64,000 nt of DNA from an uncultured Bacteroidales bacterium (GCA_949298955.1 CASFYQ010000006.1:111473-175472), one strand, 5' to 3'. Positions 14,991 through 24,445 are shown, counted from the first letter of the stretch. The notes: a model not told the origin generated them from the sequence alone. A program made the numbers and translations.

Positions 14991-16880
14991 TTAGCCTTCG
15001 ATTTCACTCAGTTCGAGCCAGCGCAAGGTCTTCTCGTCGAGCAGGTCGTTGACCTCGGGTAGCCGCTTCGATTTCGCAGTGAGTTCGTCTACCCCCAGGG
15101 TGCCGCTGCACAACTCGGTTTCGATGGCCTTTTTCTCCTCTTCGAGAGCCGCTATTTCGGCTTCGAGTTGCTCCAGCTCTTTCCTTTCCTTGAACGAGAG
15201 CCGTCGTCGGCTGTTTTCGGTCGGAGTGCGCTTCTCGGCTGTCGTTTTTTTGTTCTCTTGCCGAGCCTTTTCGGCCTGTTCGTTCCGCGCCTTTTGCTCT
15301 TGGGCTTCGCGCCATTCGCGGTAATCGGTATAGTTGCCGGGAAAATCTTTCAGTTCGCCGTTGCCCTTGAACACCAGCAGGTGGTCGGCCACTTTGTCCA
15401 TGAAATAGCGGTCGTGCGAGATGACGATGACACACCCTTTGAAATTGCGCAGGTAATCTTCGAGTACGTTGAGGGTAACGATGTCGAGGTCGTTGGTAGG
15501 CTCGTCGAGCACCAGGAAATTGGGATTGCTGATGAGTACCGTGCAGAGGTAGAGCCGGCGTCGCTCGCCACCGCTCAACTTATAGATATAATTGTGTTGG
15601 GTTTCGGGGGTGAAGAGAAAGTGTTGCAGGAACTGCGAGGCCGACAGTTTGCGCCCGTCGCCGAGCGAAATTTCTTCGGCGATGTCGCGCACGGCATCGA
15701 TTACCTTCATCTGGTCGTTGAATCGCATGCCCTCCTGGCTGTAATAGCCGAATTTGACTGTCTCGCCGATGTCGAACCGCCCGCGATCGGGCTTCACCTC
15801 GCCGATGAGCATTTTGATGAAGGTCGATTTGCCGGTACCGTTGTTGCCCACGATACCCATCTTTTCGTAACGGGTGAAGGTGTAGTCGAAATTCTCGATA
15901 ATCTTCAAGTCACCGAAACTCTTGGTGATGCCTTTGGCCTCGAAAATCTTGGACCCGATGTACGACGATTTCACTTCGAGCCGCACCTGACCGGCTGCCT
16001 TCTCGCGTCGCGCTTTCTCCTGCAACTCGGCAAAGGCGTCGATGCGGTATTTGGCTTTGGTGCCCCGGGCCTGAGGCTGGCGGCGAATCCATTCCAGCTC
16101 GGTGCGCATGAGGTTGCGTGCCCGGTCTATCTCGGCATTGTGTATTTCGATGCGTTCTTCGCGCTTTTCGAGATAGTAGCTGTAATTGCCTTTGTAGCTG
16201 TACAGAGTGCGGTCGTCGATTTCGACAATCTGGTTGCACACCCGGTCGAGGAAATAACGGTCGTGAGTGACCATGAGCAGCGTGATGTTCGAGCGGCGCA
16301 GGAACTCTTCGAGCCACTCGGTCATATCGATGTCGAGGTGGTTGGTAGGCTCGTCGAGAATGAGCAGGTCGGGCTCGGTGATAAGCACGTTGGCCAAAGC
16401 CAGTCGCTTCAGCTGTCCGCCCGACAGCTCGCGTATCGGTTGCTCGAAATGGGTGATTTTGAGTTGCGATAGAATCTGTTTGGCCCGTTGTTCGTAGTCC
16501 CAGGCTTTGGCGTGTTCCATGCGGTCGAGCAGGGCTTGCAGCCGTTCCGGGTCGTTGGCTTGGAGCGCTTGTTCATATTCGGCGATGAGGCGCACCGTTT
16601 CGTTGTCCGACTGGAAGCAGGCCTCGATGACCGTCAGCTCGGGCGCATACGACGGCGACTGTTCCAGATAGCCTACCCGCAACCCGTTGCGGTAGGTGAT
16701 GTGGCCGCTGTCATAGTCCTCCTTACCGGCCAAGATGTTGAGCAGCGTCGTTTTGCCCGCTCCGTTTTTGGCGATGAGTCCTATGCGGTCGCCTTCGCCC
16801 ACACCCAGCGAAATGTTTTCGAACAAAACACGGTCGCCGAATGATTTGGTGAGATTCTCTATCTGTAAATAACTGATCAT
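14991..16880 (-). CDS. ABC-F family ATPase (Uup/EttA-like, two ABC domains, no TMD, C-terminal coiled coil)
   Basis: Two Walker A motifs (GKNGAGKTT, GNNGTGKST). Two LSGG signatures (LSGGQLKR, LSGGERRR). Charged coiled-coil tail. Confidence 0.92.
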   Translation of the reverse strand: MISYLQIENLTKSFGDRVLFENISLGVGEGDRIGLIAKNGAGKTTLLNILAGKEDYDSGHITYRNGLRVGYLEQSPSYAPELTVIEACFQSDNETVRLIAEYEQALQANDPERLQALLDRMEHAKAWDYEQRAKQILSQLKITHFEQPIRELSGGQLKRLALANVLITEPDLLILDEPTNHLDIDMTEWLEEFLRRSNITLLMVTHDRYFLDRVCNQIVEIDDRTLYSYKGNYSYYLEKREERIEIHNAEIDRARNLMRTELEWIRRQPQARGTKAKYRIDAFAELQEKARREKAAGQVRLEVKSSYIGSKIFEAKGITKSFGDLKIIENFDYTFTRYEKMGIVGNNGTGKSTFIKMLIGEVKPDRGRFDIGETVKFGYYSQEGMRFNDQMKVIDAVRDIAEEISLGDGRKLSASQFLQHFLFTPETQHNYIYKLSGGERRRLYLCTVLISNPNFLVLDEPTNDLDIVTLNVLEDYLRNFKGCVIVISHDRYFMDKVADHLLVFKGNGELKDFPGNYTDYREWREAQEQKARNEQAEKARQENKKTTAEKRTPTENSRRRLSFKERKELEQLEAEIAALEEEKKAIETELCSGTLGVDELTAKSKRLPEVNDLLDEKTLRWLELSEIEG

Positions 16881-17415
16881 AGTCTGTGGTTAAGCGGACT
16901 CAAATTTACGACAAATGTAGTGATTGGGCAAATTGTTGCTCTCGTGGTTGCAAAAACTCTCGGGATTGGGTTGTTCGGAGCCGGTTGAGAGAACGTGAAG
17001 CCTGGGGGGGATATGCGGGCAAATCCAGGCGCCTGGTGTTTGTTTTGAATGATTTTCGAATGAAAAAACGGTTTCCTGCAAAAAATAAAGGCAGAACCGC
17101 TTGCGTTTAAGAATAAAGTTCTATCTTTGCAAAGTTTGATTGAGCCCGATGACATAAGGGTCGCGGGTTATACCAATCTTGTTATCCTATCTATCTACCT
17201 GAAACACAAAGAAAAAACACACACAAACGCCGACATTATCCGTTATTGCAAGACCGTTAAGCATTTGGTCGGAAATGCAGAGTCTTGCGGGAAATCCTTC
17301 TCGTCTTTATCTTTTTTCATGGGAACAGTAAAAATCAGCGGGGAAATAGACAAAAGAATATTTTTCTGCTCACTACCAGATACTCAGAAGAATAATAAGA
17401 GGATAGTTTTAAGTT

Positions 17416-17772
17416 TCTCCTCTATGTCGCATCGGCAATAGAGGAGAGGGCCACGCCGCGAGGGGGTGAAAAAAGGAATGAAAAAGGAGGCTGACAGGGA
17501 ATACATTAAAACTCCTCCTCTGTGTTCTCCGTGAGGAGAATATAGGGGAGGTGTCACGTAGCGAGGGAATGAAAAAAGAGGCTGACAGGGAATATATTAA
17601 AACTCCTCCCCCCCTGTGTTCTCCGTAAGGAGAATATAGGGGAGATGTCACGTAGCGAGGGAATGAAAAAAGAGGCTGACAGGGAATATATTAAAACTCC
17701 TCCCCCTGTGTTCTCCGTAAGGAGAATATAGGGGAGGTGTCACGTAGTGACGGAGGGGCCGTAAGGAGAATA
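17416..17772 (+). repeat. Hairpin-repeat array A: a lead hairpin plus about 3.5 tandem units of 92-104 bp, hairpins folding in the + strand sense
   Basis: Unit boundaries lie near 17441, 17545, 17639, 17731 and 17773. Hairpins CCCCTGTGTTCTCC-GT(G/A)A-GGAGAATATAGGGG at 17515-17550, 17611-17642 and 17703-17734; a truncated copy at 17757-17780. A separate 10-bp perfect inverted repeat lies at 17416-17447. Confidence 0.85.
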
Positions 17773-18110
17773 TAGGGGAGGTGTCACGTAGTGACGGAGG
17801 GGTTAAATACACTCATATAAAAACTTTATTTTCACTTTTTCAACCCCTCTCCTCGGGGCATAGGCCCTTCGGTTTCTCCCCTATATCACCGTCGTGACAC
17901 AGGGGAGAAATGAAGATAGTTCTTCTACCCTTTGGATTGTCGATAGTAGTGGATAGATTCCTCCTCCTCTGCTCGGCGATAGCCGAGAAAGGGGAGGTGT
18001 CACGTAGTGACGGAGGGGTTGAAAATCTCTCTGGCCCTTTTTCTTAACCCCCTCGCCTGCGGCACTCCCCCTATATTTTCTTGCAGAAAACACAGGGGGA
18101 GAGGGTAAAT
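17773..18110. repeat. Direct repeat S1 (left copy) of a composite segment carrying two minus-sense hairpins
   Basis: Aligns with 21222-21508, with roughly nine in ten positions identical by eye over the shared blocks. S1 carries an extra ~52 bp at 17921-17972. 18047-18110 is identical to 21636-21699 in array B. Confidence 0.85.
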
Positions 18111-18174
18111 CTATCGCCTGTCACATACGGAGAGGAGAGAATTGTCGTGAGGGCGACGGGGGTGGTGAATCACT

Positions 18175-19734
18175 TTAATAATCGTACTCGATATTGGTGA
18201 GCCTGTCATTCACAAAAGTCATCGACGATGGTAGCGATGGCGCTATTAGCTTTTTATCGACATAGAGTCCGGTAAACGCCCTAAAAAACTCGCTATATTC
18301 TCTATCATCGTAATACCACAAGGTAATCGTACGTCCATTCCGTACAGTTCTACTAATTTTATAAAGTCCCCTCGGAACGACCTCGCGCACCATTTCCTGA
18401 GTCATACCGACAGCGATTTCCTCGTTTGCCAAAAGGGTTCCGTATCGGCTCCCATATTTTGCCACAAGCCGTTTTTTTAATTCGGCTTTTTCCTTCGCTT
18501 CTTCCCCCTTTTTCAGAGCATACGCCCGTCTTACACCATCTCGCAATTCTATCAATGTTTTACTGTGATTAAGGTGGTATCTTAAAGATTCCGCCGCAGC
18601 TCCTTGTGACCCTATTCCCGATTCATATTTATGCAGCCAATTCCCCTCAACTTCTTCTCCATCGGCAAAAATGGTTTTTCCATCCGTGAAGATAGGCATA
18701 GGTTTTTCCTTACGAACAGAGCTTCTAAATTTCGTTGTGAGATCCCCTATAAATTTATCGCCATTGGCATAATAGTAGGTTCCCGAATCCGGTTCATCAC
18801 CTGAAAAAGTGCCTTCGAACTTATCACCATTGGCATAATAGTAGGTTCCCGAATCCGGTTCATCATCTGAAAAAGTGCCTTCGAATTTATCGCCATTGGC
18901 ATAATAGTAAGTCCCCAATTTCGGGTAAACTTTTATACTATCAGCGTAGTACTTGTAGTCAACAGCAGTGCCTTCGAACTTATCGCCATTGGTATAATAG
19001 TAGGTTCCCGATTTTATCAATCCCTCGTGTCCAACTACAAATACTACGCTGTCTATAATCCCATAGTCGATAGCTCCCTCAAATCTATCTCCATTTTCAA
19101 AGTTTACGATAGAAGTTTCGGGGGTAGAGTCCCGCTCATGCAATTCAATCGACTTAATATTGTAATAACCCTTTATAAAAAAAGGATATATTATTGTGTT
19201 ACCTTGTTTTTTATGAATCGCCATATTGGATCCTCGCAGGGAGTACTCTTTCACTTCCACCGGAGTCAATCTCAACTCGCCCTTACTTTTTACCTCTAAG
19301 CCATTACCTTCTTCTGCATTCGAAATCCGGAAAATTCCTTCCATATATATAGGATAATCCTTATGGATATAGCCACCGTCACGGGCACGACTATTCGACC
19401 ATTCTCTCGACCATCCATACCACAGATAAGTATTAAAAGTTCCCTCCAAATAGGCCGTCCCGTCTTTTACATAGTATCTGCCGCTGGCAATGGTATCTCC
19501 CAGATTTTCACCTACCCCATAACGAATCGTAATGGTTTGATTTTCGACAAACTGTTTTTTACGCACATAGCCGACAATGGAGTAAACACACTCGTGGAAA
19601 GAACCTTTCTTGTATTTGATAGTTTTCCATTGGGTACCTTTGGGCAAAGTCCCGGTCTCTTGCGCCGCGGCCGGCATGGCCACTGCGATCGCACACAACG
19701 ACAGTATAAGCGATATAATGCGGATTGTTTTCAT
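18175..19734 (-). CDS. Secreted MORN-repeat protein
   Basis: Signal peptide MKTIRIISLILSLCAIAVAMPAAAQ. Repeated GTYYYxNGDKFEGT units (MORN-type YxGxxxxGxxxGxG). Confidence 0.85.
   Translation of the reverse strand: MKTIRIISLILSLCAIAVAMPAAAQETGTLPKGTQWKTIKYKKGSFHECVYSIVGYVRKKQFVENQTITIRYGVGENLGDTIASGRYYVKDGTAYLEGTFNTYLWYGWSREWSNSRARDGGYIHKDYPIYMEGIFRISNAEEGNGLEVKSKGELRLTPVEVKEYSLRGSNMAIHKKQGNTIIYPFFIKGYYNIKSIELHERDSTPETSIVNFENGDRFEGAIDYGIIDSVVFVVGHEGLIKSGTYYYTNGDKFEGTAVDYKYYADSIKVYPKLGTYYYANGDKFEGTFSDDEPDSGTYYYANGDKFEGTFSGDEPDSGTYYYANGDKFIGDLTTKFRSSVRKEKPMPIFTDGKTIFADGEEVEGNWLHKYESGIGSQGAAAESLRYHLNHSKTLIELRDGVRRAYALKKGEEAKEKAELKKRLVAKYGSRYGTLLANEEIAVGMTQEMVREVVPRGLYKISRTVRNGRTITLWYYDDREYSEFFRAFTGLYVDKKLIAPSLPSSMTFVNDRLTNIEYDY
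18757..18915 (-). repeat. 66-bp tandem repeat (about 2.4 copies) encoding GTYYYANGDKFEGTFS(D/G)DEPDS
   Basis: Units start at 18757, 18823 and 18889 on the + strand. They are near-identical. Confidence 0.9.
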
Positions 19735-19753
19735 AGTGTATCTTTTTTATGGA

Positions 19754-20638
19754 TTATAAATATCTTTCGGTGAGATAGTCGATATAGTTCTCATGCCCCG
19801 CATAGGAGTTGTTCGCCAAGCGCATGAGAACCTCTTGGCAAGTGATGTGCCGGAAGTCGACACCGTCCGACTTGGCGATCTCGGCAAAACACCCGATTTC
19901 TTTCCTGTGCCCGGCTCCGGCCTCGCCCCATGTGTCGTACCACAGGTATAGCAACTTGAACTTTCGCCGGGGATTGCGCGCGCCCGTAGAGCGGCCTGTC
20001 GTCAAACCCAAAATATGAGTGATGAGCTGGGCCGCATCCAGATACTCAAAACGCCTGTCTCCGGCCGATATTTGCCGAGCCAATTCATAGAGCCCGGGAA
20101 TATCTCGCCACAACGGCTCATGCCCGATGTAGGATTCACAAAGGTGGCGATGACGTTTGTTGTAGGGTTCGGTAAATTTCGTCTCAATGGCAATCAGGCC
20201 CGAAGGTTCTTCGATAACCACATCGAGACAGGCGGGTTGCGGGAAAGTGCGGGCGCCGGCGCTTATCTTGAATTTCTGTTCAAATTTTATTTCCGTCTCG
20301 CCCCCTTGGGGATTGGAGCGCCTTGACAAATTCAACGCGCCCAGCAACGGCGACAGATCCTTGCCCTGCCAGTACTGAAACAGGTTGACCGTAAGCGCCG
20401 ACGACGAGTGTGTGGCGCACATTTTCGCCCGCTTCGTTCGAGTAGCATTCGTCTCGCCTCCGCCACCCGATTTGAACGAACGGGCGGTCGTTTGTGTCAG
20501 CGGCTCAAACAGGTTATCGGCGAGAGACTCCACATACGACAGTTCACCCGCTTTGCCAACCGTGCCGCTCATCAGCCTCGCCCCTCTCCGCCGTGCCCAG
20601 CATCGCTGCTTCAGCTTGATTTGTTTCGATCCGTTCAT
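19754..20638 (-). CDS. PD-(D/E)XK nuclease-like protein (putative orphan restriction-endonuclease-like enzyme)
   Basis: Core motif ACLDVVIEEPSGLIAIETKF, i.e. D-x13-E-x-K in the hydrophobic beta context typical of PD-(D/E)XK. Preceded by HSSSALTVNLF. The ORF is open up to 20767; the ATG at 20638 (MNGSKQ...) is my preferred start and 20572 is also possible. Confidence 0.65.
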   Translation of the reverse strand: MNGSKQIKLKQRCWARRRGARLMSGTVGKAGELSYVESLADNLFEPLTQTTARSFKSGGGGETNATRTKRAKMCATHSSSALTVNLFQYWQGKDLSPLLGALNLSRRSNPQGGETEIKFEQKFKISAGARTFPQPACLDVVIEEPSGLIAIETKFTEPYNKRHRHLCESYIGHEPLWRDIPGLYELARQISAGDRRFEYLDAAQLITHILGLTTGRSTGARNPRRKFKLLYLWYDTWGEAGAGHRKEIGCFAEIAKSDGVDFRHITCQEVLMRLANNSYAGHENYIDYLTERYL

Positions 20639-21221
20639 GGTATAGTTTATTTTAGCCCCGTCATGTGGCTCCTCATGACAGATGAAACAATATAAAAAGT
20701 GTGGAGCCATTCGTTTATTGTGTAGGAGGTCCTGACAAAACCCAAAAGCAAATAAACAATACTCCACACTCGATCGTATATGTTTTTCAACACATACAAC
20801 ACAAGTGACGAGTGTTATTGCTTATCCATGCTTTTTTTGAAACTGTCAGATTTCCTACACAGGATAAAAGCGAAACACTTTCACAAAACATTGCCGCTAT
20901 TTGCGACATTGCAAAGATAATGAAGTTTCCCTATAAAACAACAACATCTCCTCGCTTGGAGTATTGCGATTTGCCTTTGGGTTATTATATAATACGAAAA
21001 TGAAAATTTACGAAATGCAAACAAGTGTAAACAAGATTGAATATTTATCAATAAATCAAATTCCAATCTTTCATTAAGTCTTATAAATAAATCGATTAGT
21101 AAAATTTCTTATGCTAATTTGTTAACTTTATTTATGTATTTATTTATGTCGCTGAGCTATATAGGCATGATAGAAGGACGATAAGGCAAGACTTCATGCG
21201 AGACTGCGCAGCGGGAAGAAA

Positions 21222-21508
21222 GGGGAGGTGTCACGCAGTGACGGAGGGGTTGAAAACACTCATATAAAAACTTTTATTTCCACTTTTTCAACCCCTCTCC
21301 TCGGGGCATAGGCCCTTCGGTTTCTCCCCTATATCACTGTCGTGCCACAGGGGAGAAGTGAAGATAGTTTTTGGCGATAGCCGAGATAGGGGAGGTGTCA
21401 CGTAGTGACGGAGGGGTTGAAAATCTATCGGACACAGTATCTCTTAATCCCCTCGCCTACGGCGCTCCCCCTATATTCCCCTTGTGGAGAACACAGGGGG
21501 AGAGTTTA
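21222..21508. repeat. Direct repeat S2 (right copy) of the composite segment
   Basis: See S1. Contains minus-sense hairpins at 21324-21355 and 21465-21502 and the GGCGATAGCCGAG mini-hairpin (GATA loop) at 21373-21385. Confidence 0.85.
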
Positions 21509-21812
21509 AACCTTGGCATTTACAGGAAGCGCAGAAGAGAAACCCCCTCGCCTGCGGCACTCCCCCTATATTTCCTTGCAAAGAACACAGGGGGAGAGTT
21601 TAAACCTTGGCATTTACAGGAAGCGCAGAAGAGAAACCCCCTCGCCTGCGGCACTCCCCCTATATTTTCTTGCAGAAAACACAGGGGGAGAGGGTAAATG
21701 TAACTTCTTGGCATTTACAGGAAGCGCAGAAGAGGAAACCCTTCGTCACTGCCTGCGGCACTCCTCTATATTTTCTTGCAGAATACACAGGGGGAGAGGT
21801 GAATTTCCCTTT
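21446..21812 (-). repeat. Hairpin-repeat array B: about 4 tandem units of 94-101 bp, hairpins folding in the minus strand sense
   Basis: Units start near 21446, 21541, 21635 and 21736. Hairpins at 21465-21502, 21560-21596, 21654-21690 and 21761-21796. Read on the minus strand: CTCCCCCTGTGT...GCAA/ACAA...ATATAGGGGGAG. Confidence 0.85.
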
Positions 21813-23905: not shown

Positions 23906-23913
23906 TACCTTTG
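23906..23913 (+). promoter_or_regulatory. Bacteroides-type -7 box (TACCTTTG) for the SRP RNA / tRNA-Thr unit
   Basis: Matches TAnnTTTG, about 5-8 nt upstream of the predicted RNA 5' end (GGGTAAG at 23918). Confidence 0.5.
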
Positions 23914-23917
23914 TGCC

Positions 23918-24015
23918 CGGGTAAGTCCTATACGGCCAGCTCCTTGTGAATCCCCCAGGGCTTGACCGCAGCAAGGGTAGCCGGTTGTAGCGGCGCGATG
24001 TAGATAGCTTACCCA
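23918..24015 (+). ncRNA. ffs: Probable small bacterial SRP RNA (4.5S / ffs)
   Basis: Terminal helix GGGTAAG...CTTACCC. Internal CCCAGGG...GCAGCAAGGG and GATGTAG elements resemble the helix-8 AGCA loop and the 3' GAUGUAGC of 4.5S RNA. About 98 nt, own promoter, no ORF. The apical loop is not a textbook GGAA. Confidence 0.55.
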
Positions 24016-24018
24016 CCT

Positions 24019-24092
24019 GCCTCTTTAGCTCAGTTGGCCAGAGCACGTGATTTGTAATCTCGGGGTCGTTGGTTCGAATCCGACAAGAGGCT
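24019..24092 (+). tRNA. tRNA-Thr (anticodon TGT)
   Basis: Acceptor GCCTCTT/AAGAGGC, D arm GCTC-AGTTGGCCA-GAGC, anticodon loop TTTGTAA, T arm GTTGG-TTCGAAT-CCGAC. Length 74 nt; CCA not encoded. Confidence 0.9.
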
Positions 24093-24100
24093 CAAAAGAA

Positions 24101-24136
24101 AAAGCCACTTTCGATTTTTCGAAAGTGGCTTTTGTG
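24101..24136. terminator. Rho-independent terminator after tRNA-Thr
   Basis: AAAGCCACTTTCG / CGAAAGTGGCTTT 13-bp stem flanked by A-run and T-run. Confidence 0.7.
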
Positions 24137-24210
24137 TTATATGGGGTTTCAATTATCCGCTGGTTTTCAATCCCCACTGATTTTCTACTGTCCCCAATTC
24201 AGGTGTAGAT

Positions 24211-24253
24211 AAAACACAAACGGCAAGAATATTTTTTATTCTTGCCGTTTGTG
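24211..24253 (-). terminator. Rho-independent terminator of the tRNA-Asp/tRNA-His unit
   Basis: CACAAACGGCAAGAAT / ATTCTTGCCGTTTGTG stem immediately 3' of tRNA-His. Followed on the minus strand by TTTT. Confidence 0.7.
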
Positions 24254-24331
24254 TGGGGTGCTAGATGGGACTCGAACCCACGACCCTCGGAACCACAATC
24301 CGATGCTCTAACCAACTGAGCTACAGGCACC
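24254..24331 (-). tRNA. tRNA-His (anticodon GTG) with G-1 and encoded CCA
   Basis: The reverse complement gives G-1 + GTGCCTG, D arm GCTC-AGTTGGTTA-GAGC, anticodon arm TCGGA-TTGTGGT-TCCGA, T arm GTGGG-TTCGAGT-CCCAT, then CTAGCAC-C-CCA. The acceptor stem has two non-pairs (C5:A68, T6:T67), which lowers confidence slightly. Confidence 0.8.
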
Positions 24332-24368
24332 ATGTTTGATTTTTGTAAAGGCGTTTTTTCGTCCTTAC

Positions 24369-24445
24369 TGGCGGTGCGGACGGGACTCGAACCCGCGACC
24401 CCATGCGTGACAGGCATGTATTCTAACCAGCTGAACTACCGCACC
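24369..24445 (-). tRNA. tRNA-Asp (anticodon GTC), CCA encoded
   Basis: Acceptor GGTGCGG/CCGCACC is perfect. Anticodon arm CATGC-CTGTCAC-GCATG. T arm GCGGG-TTCGAGT-CCCGT. Discriminator G + CCA. Confidence 0.92.

Follow-up and report, generated by a model that had tools for sequence, protein, structure and literature searches.

A dispersed family of two-hairpin, REP/BIME-like elements in the intergenic DNA of Bacteroidales

What kind of element builds the hairpin arrays that lie between positions 17416 and 21812 of a 64-kb stretch of DNA from an uncultured Bacteroidales bacterium (GCA_949298955.1, CASFYQ010000006.1:111473-175472; hereafter the window)? A preliminary description made from the sequence alone had listed 11 hairpins in two opposed tandem arrays around a two-gene cassette. 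It had proposed repeats like repetitive extragenic palindromes (REPs) and bacterial interspersed mosaic elements (BIMEs), a processed small RNA (sRNA) array, or single-stranded DNA (ssDNA) substrates of recombination or transposition. Here we describe the hairpins as parts of a two-hairpin element that is dispersed through Bacteroidales genomes and viral contigs. We think it probable that the family resembles REPs, BIMEs and REPINs (REP doublets forming hairpins), that it is copied as ssDNA by an enzyme acting in trans, and that in the window a foreign cassette entered between two ancestral arrays. The Bacteroidales that abound in the gut are not, to our knowledge, noted for REP-type repeats. 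A search of the searchable literature returned no description of the hairpin family, which is apparently undescribed and new for Bacteroidales.

To define the element, public genomes and viral contigs were scanned for the hairpin foot and the matches were aligned. On the sense strand, by which we mean the strand on which the G.T or G.U pairs form, the element reads (TT)AAACTCCTC(C/T)C-TGTGT-[apex stem and loop]-ATATA-GGGGAGG-T-[hp1]-GGAGGGGTT(T)AA and is 65-77 nucleotides (nt) long. Its long hairpin (hp2) combines a conserved foot, CTCCYC-TGTGT/ATATA-GGGGAG, with an apex that is free to vary; a short second hairpin (hp1) follows on the 3' side and leads into the GGAGGGGTT tail. The real unit is therefore this two-hairpin element and not the single hairpin first proposed. 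What sets the subfamilies apart is hp1 together with the outer portion of the long stem. Subfamily a carries ...GGTG-GCAC-GCA-GTGAC-GGAGGGG and subfamily b CACTTCTCCCC...GAGAAACCGAGGAAC-N4-GTTCCGAGGAGAGGGG; subfamilies c, d and e occur in metagenome-assembled genomes (MAGs) labelled Bacteroidaceae and in Ca. Limisoma. In a further variant, hp2 is CTG-CTCGGC-GRTA-GCCGAG-ATA.

A covariance model built from the aligned copies (R1) matches the window 13 times at E<1e-5 and once at E=1e-3, always inside 17409-21803, for a total of 14-15 copies (Table 1). All 11 copies of the preliminary description were recovered in place, and R1 added those at 17409-17471(+), 17956-18023(+), ~21356-21421(+) and, as a partial copy, 21187-21254(+). 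The remaining 59 kb of the window contain no hairpin copy, the best R1 match there having E=0.43, so the earlier observation that the window has no copies outside this locus stands. Tandem Repeats Finder (TRF) delimits array A at 17475-17754 (94-bp period, 3.0 copies, 93% matches) and array B at 21449-21798 (94-bp period, 3.6 copies, 88% matches), and repeat comparison bears out that the two are mutually inverted. The core pattern CCCTATAT-N8-24-CACAGGG has eight matches in the window, all at 17.6-21.7 kb, and none in 100 shuffles; the same stretch holds five copies of the 28-nt motif GGGGAGGTGTCACGTAGTGACGGAGGGG, which is the 3' half of the element (stem end, hp1 and tail). The 'neighbouring mini-hairpins' noted earlier do exist, as parts of family members X, Y, X' and Y' rather than as separate structures. 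GC content is about 0.45 across 17-22 kb, arrays and cassette included, versus about 0.53 in the flanks.

Conservation of the fold was assessed on an R1-guided alignment of 150 copies against 500 shuffles. Stem positions are paired in 95.1% of cells versus 82.3% in the shuffles, and cells with changes on both sides number 296 versus 86, values that none of the 500 shuffles reached; sliding the pairing partners cuts pairing by half. Double changes occur at 12 of the 16 stem pairs. The outer pairs alternate between C-G and U-A, with 31 and 44 double changes, and three or four pair types are used at the apical positions. We counted 67 distinct apices enclosed by TGTGT and ATATA; from the base they keep 3.45 contiguous pairs, versus 0.66 when shuffled, and the compensatory apex changes noted earlier are thereby confirmed. 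Fold z-scores of the elements range from -4 to -5.6. A terminal closing helix, or three-way junction, formed by TTAAACYCCT with AGGGGTTTAA was also considered; with 72% of cells paired and one-sided changes, it was not accepted beyond subfamily a, whereas the extended hp2 stem has true CG<->UA double changes.

The preliminary description had further pointed to TGTGT facing ATATA, which completes the stem through wobble pairs on one strand only. Among 144 distinct copies, two G.T positions are indeed nearly invariant, kept in 140/144 and 120/127 of those with letters there; a third is C-G in 75 copies, T.G in 62 and C.A almost never. Selection for a single-strand structure is supported, but the strand asymmetry proves restricted to these three fixed positions. 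Computed with RNA parameters, folding favours the sense over the antisense strand in 154/154 copies (-31.5 versus -21.5 kcal/mol); with DNA parameters it does likewise, by a smaller margin, in all four window elements tested.

How widely is this element distributed? A genome scan with the hairpin pattern hit 51 Bacteroidales blocks. Loci were collected by an exact-pattern search that required TATAT/ACACA, and R1 applied to 89 fetched loci gave 174 matches at E<=1e-3, the best 150 of which all lie in Bacteroidales MAGs or viral contigs. A single Barnesiella MAG (CALUFO01) holds 76 copies in 21 blocks of 8 kb, and 6 of the roughly 17 blocks of one of its contigs (140 kb) carry elements. Other counts are 18 in the 'Bacteroidaceae' MAG RGIG6483, 10 in RGIG7723, 10 in Ca. 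Limisoma intestinavium and 7 in another Barnesiella, with fewer in MAGs labelled Prevotellaceae and Porphyromonadaceae and five on IMG/VR viral contigs. R1 is specific, because it found no match in 31 non-Bacteroidales loci (chance matches to the loose pattern) and none in 640 kb of independent Bacteroidales-type metagenome loci, except on a contig of the window's own strain. The two closest relatives, MAG MGYG-HGUT-01604 (L079) and Ca. B. merdigallinarum (L051), both Barnesiella genomes, have the exact pattern in one block each, at the same locus as the window; the family is accordingly sparse in the window's lineage and dense in others.

The IMG/VR viral contigs with hairpin copies (L001-L005) come from gut samples, as do five unannotated 'Bacteriophage sp.' GenBank records that also carry copies (MT836672, MT836359, MT839338, MT838468 and MT836850); these contigs may be true phage genomes or host flanks. 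In annotated plasmid collections no plasmid with a hairpin element was found.

Nearly all copies are intergenic, next to ordinary genes (ribosomal protein S1, aminotransferase, RadC, glycosyltransferase, CdaA, BspA-type LRR protein). Their clusters hold one to nine copies, in both orientations and often mixed within a cluster, and lie between tandem (30), convergent (9) or divergent (8) genes. Relative to the adjacent upstream gene, the sense strand is the same in 46 cases and opposite in 57. The search of related genomes advocated at the outset returned at least 150 copies in Bacteroidales MAGs and viral contigs with no gene-orientation bias. The organisation is mosaic. A recurrent composite joins an a-type element (+) tail to tail to a b-type element (-) across a spacer of about 38 nt; it stands twice in the window, at 17692-17915 and 21187-21363, and the window's version with spacer sp1 recurs at Barnesiella MAG loci. 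At one locus (L009) a 347-bp higher-order repeat of three elements occurs three times.

In MAGs of the RGIG series, an inverted element pair of about 225 nt stands amid other hairpin-repeat modules (loci L011, L012, L021, L026, L040, L043, L080 and L081). These extra modules, for example ACGCACC-GCTG-GTGCGT and ACGTC-GCA-GACGT, have G..A loops as well, and the RGIG genomes therefore hold several co-clustered hairpin families. A semi-conserved module, TTTAAACTCYCCCTCTGTGTTTMCTGYAAWCGGYAAGGNGGTACAT, lies about 45 nt upstream of many a-type elements (L009, L041, L053, L061, L087 and others). Its first part resembles an element head and the sequence diverges thereafter; one version forms the array B spacers at 21510-21545. 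The module may be a truncated element or a piece of a longer unit. Aligned multi-copy composites gave no clean element ends and no target duplication, because the flanks run into further repeat modules.

Does the conserved fold act in RNA or in DNA? A functional RNA, in which the sense transcript would fold with G.U pairs and GNRA-like loops as an sRNA array, an mRNA 3' stabiliser or a terminator, would account for the uniform folding advantage of the sense strand under RNA parameters. Element H also lies in sense orientation 67 nt after the stop codon of a 519-amino-acid (aa) cassette gene, and Escherichia coli REPs can stabilise mRNA (PMC3733652). The sense RNA hairpins of tested copies are computed at -25 to -41 kcal/mol, and sense-transcribed copies would by this calculation form very stable RNA hairpins. 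Against such a function stand the absence of gene co-orientation (46:57), the eight clusters in divergent promoter regions, the occurrence of both orientations inside single clusters and the absence of a T-run after the hairpins. Nor does any Rfam family match them: at gathering thresholds Rfam 15 finds only signal recognition particle (SRP) RNA and tRNAs in the window, and at E<=10 the 17.0-22.2 kb interval gives only chance miRNA-like matches far below threshold.

The loops tell in the same direction. They start with G and end with A, mainly as C-GNA-G or C-GNNA-G, and are not mostly GNRA as first thought: C-GNA-G triloops outnumber every other class (42 in hp2, 35 in hp1), and GNYA tetraloops (GTCA, GCCA, GACA) are as common as GNRA. 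GCGNAGC and GCGNNAGC are known as 'extraordinarily stable mini-hairpin DNA' motifs, and the stability of d(GNA) loops needs a C-G closing pair (PMC13037366, PMC3201870); the C-G-closed GNA triloops and the GNYA loops of the family are motifs of this DNA type. Because the loops are DNA-type and the copies are not co-oriented with genes, we infer, short of proof, that the structural constraint acts on folded ssDNA. The lack of co-orientation makes an obligate RNA role unlikely, and with copies in all intergenic types the processed sRNA array suggested earlier is disfavoured; overall, we consider a functional RNA improbable. A type III toxin-antitoxin (ToxI-like) array was rejected, as the relatives' arrays have only conserved genes as neighbours and dispersed copies are single or in mixed orientation.

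Elements of 65-110 nt would also suit a MITE (a miniature transposable element with inverted repeats), that is, a non-autonomous remnant of a DDE-type insertion sequence (IS) that moved as double-stranded DNA through terminal inverted repeats (TIRs) with a short target duplication, the internal hairpins being incidental. The a-type 5' end TTAAACTCCTCC matches the reverse complement of the 3' end TTAAACCCCTCC at 12/13 positions, and TTTAAA at both ends could be a duplicated palindromic target; for the same reason, a TIR is here indistinguishable from a target duplication. The terminal match is, however, limited to subfamily a, and across the family the terminal pairing (72% of cells) shows mostly one-sided changes. 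The internal stems covary and their apices are swapped with the stem kept, which an element dependent on TIRs alone would not need. Moreover, about 700 kb of element-rich loci contain no parent IS or transposase, and the element boundaries dissolve into other repeat modules. A MITE origin is in our judgement unlikely.

How, then, did the arrays come to enclose two genes? The window itself comes from a Barnesiella. Aligned on both sides of the locus, the one next to uup and the far one, its DNA shares 93% identity with L079 and 84-85% with L051. Both relatives have convergent arrays at the same place and no cassette. In window orientation, L079 has three plus and two minus copies and L051 four plus and two minus; the arrays adjoin in both, about 22 nt apart in L079, whereas in the window four plus copies are separated from four minus copies by about 4 kb (BLAST, 17662-21634). 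Direct repeats of about 340 bp (X-Y-H versus X'-Y'-B units), 84-99% identical and spaced 3447 bp apart, flank this extra DNA, and one of its junctions lies directly after element H, at about 18110 in the junction alignment. Because the relatives have the arrays without the cassette, these ~4 kb are an insertion, or else a deletion in the relatives, and either way the event went through the repeats. As the relatives share the arrays at the same locus, the arrays are ancestral and variable in copy number.

The first cassette gene encodes a putative restriction endonuclease of the PGN_0703/REase-ARP family (PF22558). The product of the second has a signal-peptide-like N-terminus and internal repeats of 66 bp (22 aa), and no match in Pfam or NCBIfam. 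The coding repeats (18755-18916; 2.5 copies, 93%) have units of the form GTYYYANGDKFEGTFSxDEPDS and look MORN-like by eye. No hairpin elements were found at five loci of nuclease homologues in other genera or at 81 metagenome loci (640 kb) with the cassette's leader, most of which carry a nuclease homologue. Since nuclease and leader loci lack hairpins and the relatives' arrays lack the cassette, the two are unrelated, and their arrangement is a coincidence of insertion rather than a system. The picture of arrays flanking a two-gene cassette as one unit fails on these grounds, and the co-orientation of the minus copies with the enclosed genes is meaningless, since in the relatives the arrays occur and those genes do not. 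On the same two observations we rejected the idea that the REase-ARP nuclease is the cognate enzyme, which would have paralleled a REP-associated tyrosine transposase (RAYT) flanked by REPs.

The cassette's position exactly between convergent arrays, the flanking direct hairpin repeats (D1, D4, D6 and D11) of about 340 bp, which would be expected after circle integration at a shared site, and the empty state in the relatives would all suit attC-like sites, with the hairpins as substrates of a site-specific recombinase and the cluster as a platform that captured the cassette. Ordinary homologous recombination between repeats that are 84-99% identical suffices, however. The integron core sequences (RYYYAAC/GTTRRRY) are not conserved at the element ends, no integrase is found among the annotated neighbours, elements elsewhere adjoin housekeeping genes rather than cassettes, and other leader loci lack hairpins. 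We regard attC-like sites as very improbable and integron attC itself as excluded. A CRISPR array was likewise rejected, as the whole 94-bp unit, including the part between hairpins, repeats at 88-93% and single dispersed copies exist elsewhere. The preliminary description had rightly assigned the hairpins to neither, each class failing in a defining feature.

The cassette begins with a leader (20919-20685, -) in which a Bacteroidetes-type -7 box, TATCTTTG, at 20919-20912 precedes a structured RNA of about 220 nt. Leader DNA is 77-80% identical to the leaders of nuclease homologues in other genera, although the proteins are only about 50% identical. The RNA forms ten helices, in which 97% of cells are paired and double changes fill 74 cells versus 18 in shuffles (0/500); in a long-range helix five of six pairs covary, the invariant loops CUGACAG and UGUCAG are mutually complementary, and the 3' end is a long stem followed by a T-run. 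The leader RNA has no Rfam match. A metagenome scan with an invariant leader 20-mer yielded at least 80 loci. Among the matches listed, 61 of 91 oriented ones have a REase-ARP gene whose start lies about 218 nt beyond the leader motif; the genes headed by other copies are HTH, WYL-like, type I R-subunit-like, vWA-like or lipoprotein genes; and of the 62 loci whose upstream DNA reaches far enough, 40 have an integrase-DUF6291-primase (PriCT_2) module directly upstream of the leader, an AlpA-like gene standing between integrase and DUF6291 where the locus had gene calls. It follows that the window's cassette represents the cargo end of integrative elements of a common family, and the window holds that end only. 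The leader site has the look of a hot spot at which small, possibly satellite-like, integrative elements carry defence-like cargo, and an RNA that heads such variable cargo is perhaps of equal or greater interest than the hairpins.

Table 1 Features of the hairpin locus in window coordinates
Feature	Coordinates	Strand	Evidence
Degenerate hairpin element, outer end of array A	17409..17471	+	R1 24.5 bits, E=7.6e-6
Array A element 1 (hp2 loop GTGA; hp1 degenerate)	17507..17573	+	R1 49.5 bits; TRF array
Array A element 2	17601..17667	+	R1 44.2 bits
Array A element 3, full two-hairpin a-type (hp1 GTCAC-GTA-GTGAC)	17692..17763	+	R1 59 bits; folds
Exact 44-bp duplication of the 3' half of element 3	17759..17802	+	TRF 17715-17802, period 44, 2.0 copies, 100%; motif match 17775-17802
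Spacer sp1 between a-type and b-type elements, tail to tail	17803..17838	.	Direct repeat D11; recurrent downstream flanks
Element X, b-type (CACTTCTCCCC...GAGAGGGGTT)	17839..17915	-	R1 62.8 bits; DNA fold -18.5 kcal/mol, z -4.5
Element Y, variant hp2 CTCGGC-GATA-GCCGAG	17956..18023	+	R1 37.8 bits; variant also in other genomes
Element H, 99% identical to array B unit 3 (D1)	18043..18108	-	R1 72.5 bits; junction alignment
Cassette gene 2, 519-aa protein	18175..19734	-	Open reading frame (ORF); outside repeat family
Cassette gene 1, REase-ARP/PGN_0703-family putative restriction endonuclease, 294 aa from ATG at 20638	19754..20638	-	PF22558 E=5e-16
-7 box and structured leader RNA (~220 nt), part of the cassette, outside the hairpin family	20685..20919	-	Alignments; covariation
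Partial a-type element, 3' half intact	21187..21254	+	R1 17.9 bits; motif match 21222-21249, 1 mismatch
Element X' (b-type), direct repeat of X	21287..21363	-	R1 53.5 bits; D6 93%
Element Y', 5'-truncated, direct repeat of Y	21356..21421	+	R1 21316-21421, 42 bits; D4 89%; coordinates trimmed by eye
Array B element 1	21443..21509	-	R1 63 bits; TRF array 21449-21798
Array B element 2	21538..21603	-	R1 65.9 bits
Array B element 3; synteny with relative L079 resumes at ~21634	21632..21697	-	R1 68.4 bits; BLAST
Array B element 4, diverged	21733..21803	-	R1 32.2 bits

Around these features, a 92-aa ORF at 16877-17155 (-), between uup and array A, has a low-complexity, implausible translation and probably does not represent a gene, which leaves the roughly 530 nt from uup to the array non-coding. 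An 87-bp tandem repeat lies at 1943-2181 (2.7 copies, 93% matches), and the Bacteroidales small SRP RNA directly followed by a tRNA, with two more tRNAs on the other strand, at 23912-24445, about 2 kb from array B, where they form the ordinary right-hand surroundings of the locus. Exact-protein searches with the window's own genes returned no match on record. Four Logan contigs of the same strain (L095-L098; window ~21245-18836) carry an identical nuclease gene, L095 in at least 20 samples, and end in a hairpin element on one side and in the 66-bp coding repeats on the other. Since same-strain contigs end inside them, both kinds of repeat break short-read assemblies.

How would such elements multiply and spread? 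In the account we favour, a folded single-stranded element would be recognised and copied by a trans-acting enzyme encoded elsewhere, for which an HUH/Y1 RAYT-like protein is our default guess. Slippage or unequal exchange would multiply units locally and give rise to the 94-bp arrays and the mixed-orientation mosaics. At the window locus, two convergent arrays are ancestral, and a foreign cassette of 3.5-4 kb (leader RNA, REase-ARP gene and repeat-protein gene) lies between the array tails, where it probably entered by recombination at the repeats, leaving the direct repeats X-Y-H. The hypothesis of REP/BIME-like elements in the preliminary description is supported by the dispersal, the intergenic position, the occurrence in both orientations, the mosaics and the covarying stems.

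Several results weigh against this account. A scan for ORFs with an HUH...Y motif found no RAYT/HUH gene in the window and about 700 kb of element loci, and the association with such genes that had been envisaged was not seen in this DNA. The GT[AG]G (or CGTC) tag expected at the foot of the hairpin is absent, the foot being CTCCYC-TGTGT; the only GTAG lies within hp1 in some copies of the window and gives way elsewhere to GCA or GAA loops. No clean pair of filled and empty sites was obtained for an element that would bear on transposition, target or ends. When set against local GC skew, orientation is unbiased (52:45), but any bias would be hidden by inverted pairs. Outside the three fixed positions mismatches are equally rare (G.T 24, A.C 29), so that the strand asymmetry is confined to them and is a fixed signature rather than a general tolerance; a general asymmetry is ruled out. 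Finally, the locus search based on TATAT/ACACA biases each locus towards at least one copy with these letters, and the majority of the data come from MAGs.

We give little credence to another idea: that the family is the DNA half of an unrecognised Bacteroidales system in which an enzyme other than a RAYT would cut and join folded ssDNA hairpins with fixed G.T wobbles, and convergent arrays would be landing pads that take up or let go cassettes such as the defence-like REase-ARP unit, making an exchange platform distinct from integrons. REP/BIME-like elements, as we prefer to read the family, would have consequences of their own. Dense structured repeats in Barnesiella and its relatives break short-read assemblies, and the family creates arrays of variable number and recombination hot spots for the entry and exit of islands. 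It implies an enzyme able to recognise, as its DNA signature, two hairpins with fixed G.T pairs. As a specific marker with few false positives, R1 could serve in strain typing and in linking phage contigs to hosts.

Which known systems does the family resemble? With the Correia elements of Neisseria and other bacterial MITEs it shares a length of about 100 nt, an intergenic position, inverted termini, transcript hairpins and a role as rearrangement hot spots. Correia elements have 26-nt TIRs and a TA duplication; in the present family, by contrast, the conserved part is internal (the hairpin foot), the termini match in one subfamily only and a duplication is not resolvable. Like the palindrome-associated transposable elements (PATEs) derived from IS200/IS605, the present elements have imperfect hairpins that matter on one strand, two per element on the same strand, and need no classical TIRs. 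The left-end and right-end hairpins of IS200/IS605 resemble each other, whereas the two hairpins here are dissimilar. Also unlike PATEs, the family forms mixed-orientation mosaics and tandem arrays, and its loci offer no TnpA and no conserved target tetranucleotide that could be defined.

The comparison with REPs is closest in organisation. The present unit has two hairpins and 65-77 nt, whereas a REP has 20-40 nt; its foot is the C-rich CTCCYC-TGTGT/ATATA-GGGGAG, whereas the canonical REP hairpin foot bears a 5' GT[AG]G or CGTC tag (PMC6006769). Its host range is Bacteroidales and, unlike REPIN-RAYT systems, it comes with no RAYT in the DNA scanned. 'Atypical' REPs are reported for the Bacteroidetes RAYT subclass 2.6; those listed in the accessible part of that source come from other orders and are unlike the present family, and four motifs of the family are absent from both supplementary files on RAYT-associated REPs. 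BIMEs are described as 'regularly spaced REPs ... in alternating orientations' with characteristic linkers (PMC2817692), and a REPIN as two inverted REPs with a spacer (PMC3337134). As in the REP/BIME elements of Enterobacteria, among them E. coli, and the REPIN-RAYT systems of Pseudomonas, the elements are short, imperfect, extragenic palindromes with many copies per genome. As in REPs and BIMEs, fixed mismatches orient each copy, clusters alternate in orientation with linkers between them, and subfamilies co-exist in a genome. The inverted doublets with a spacer recall REPINs. Rather than counting the family as a demonstrated member of REP/BIME, we class it as one that works like these elements.

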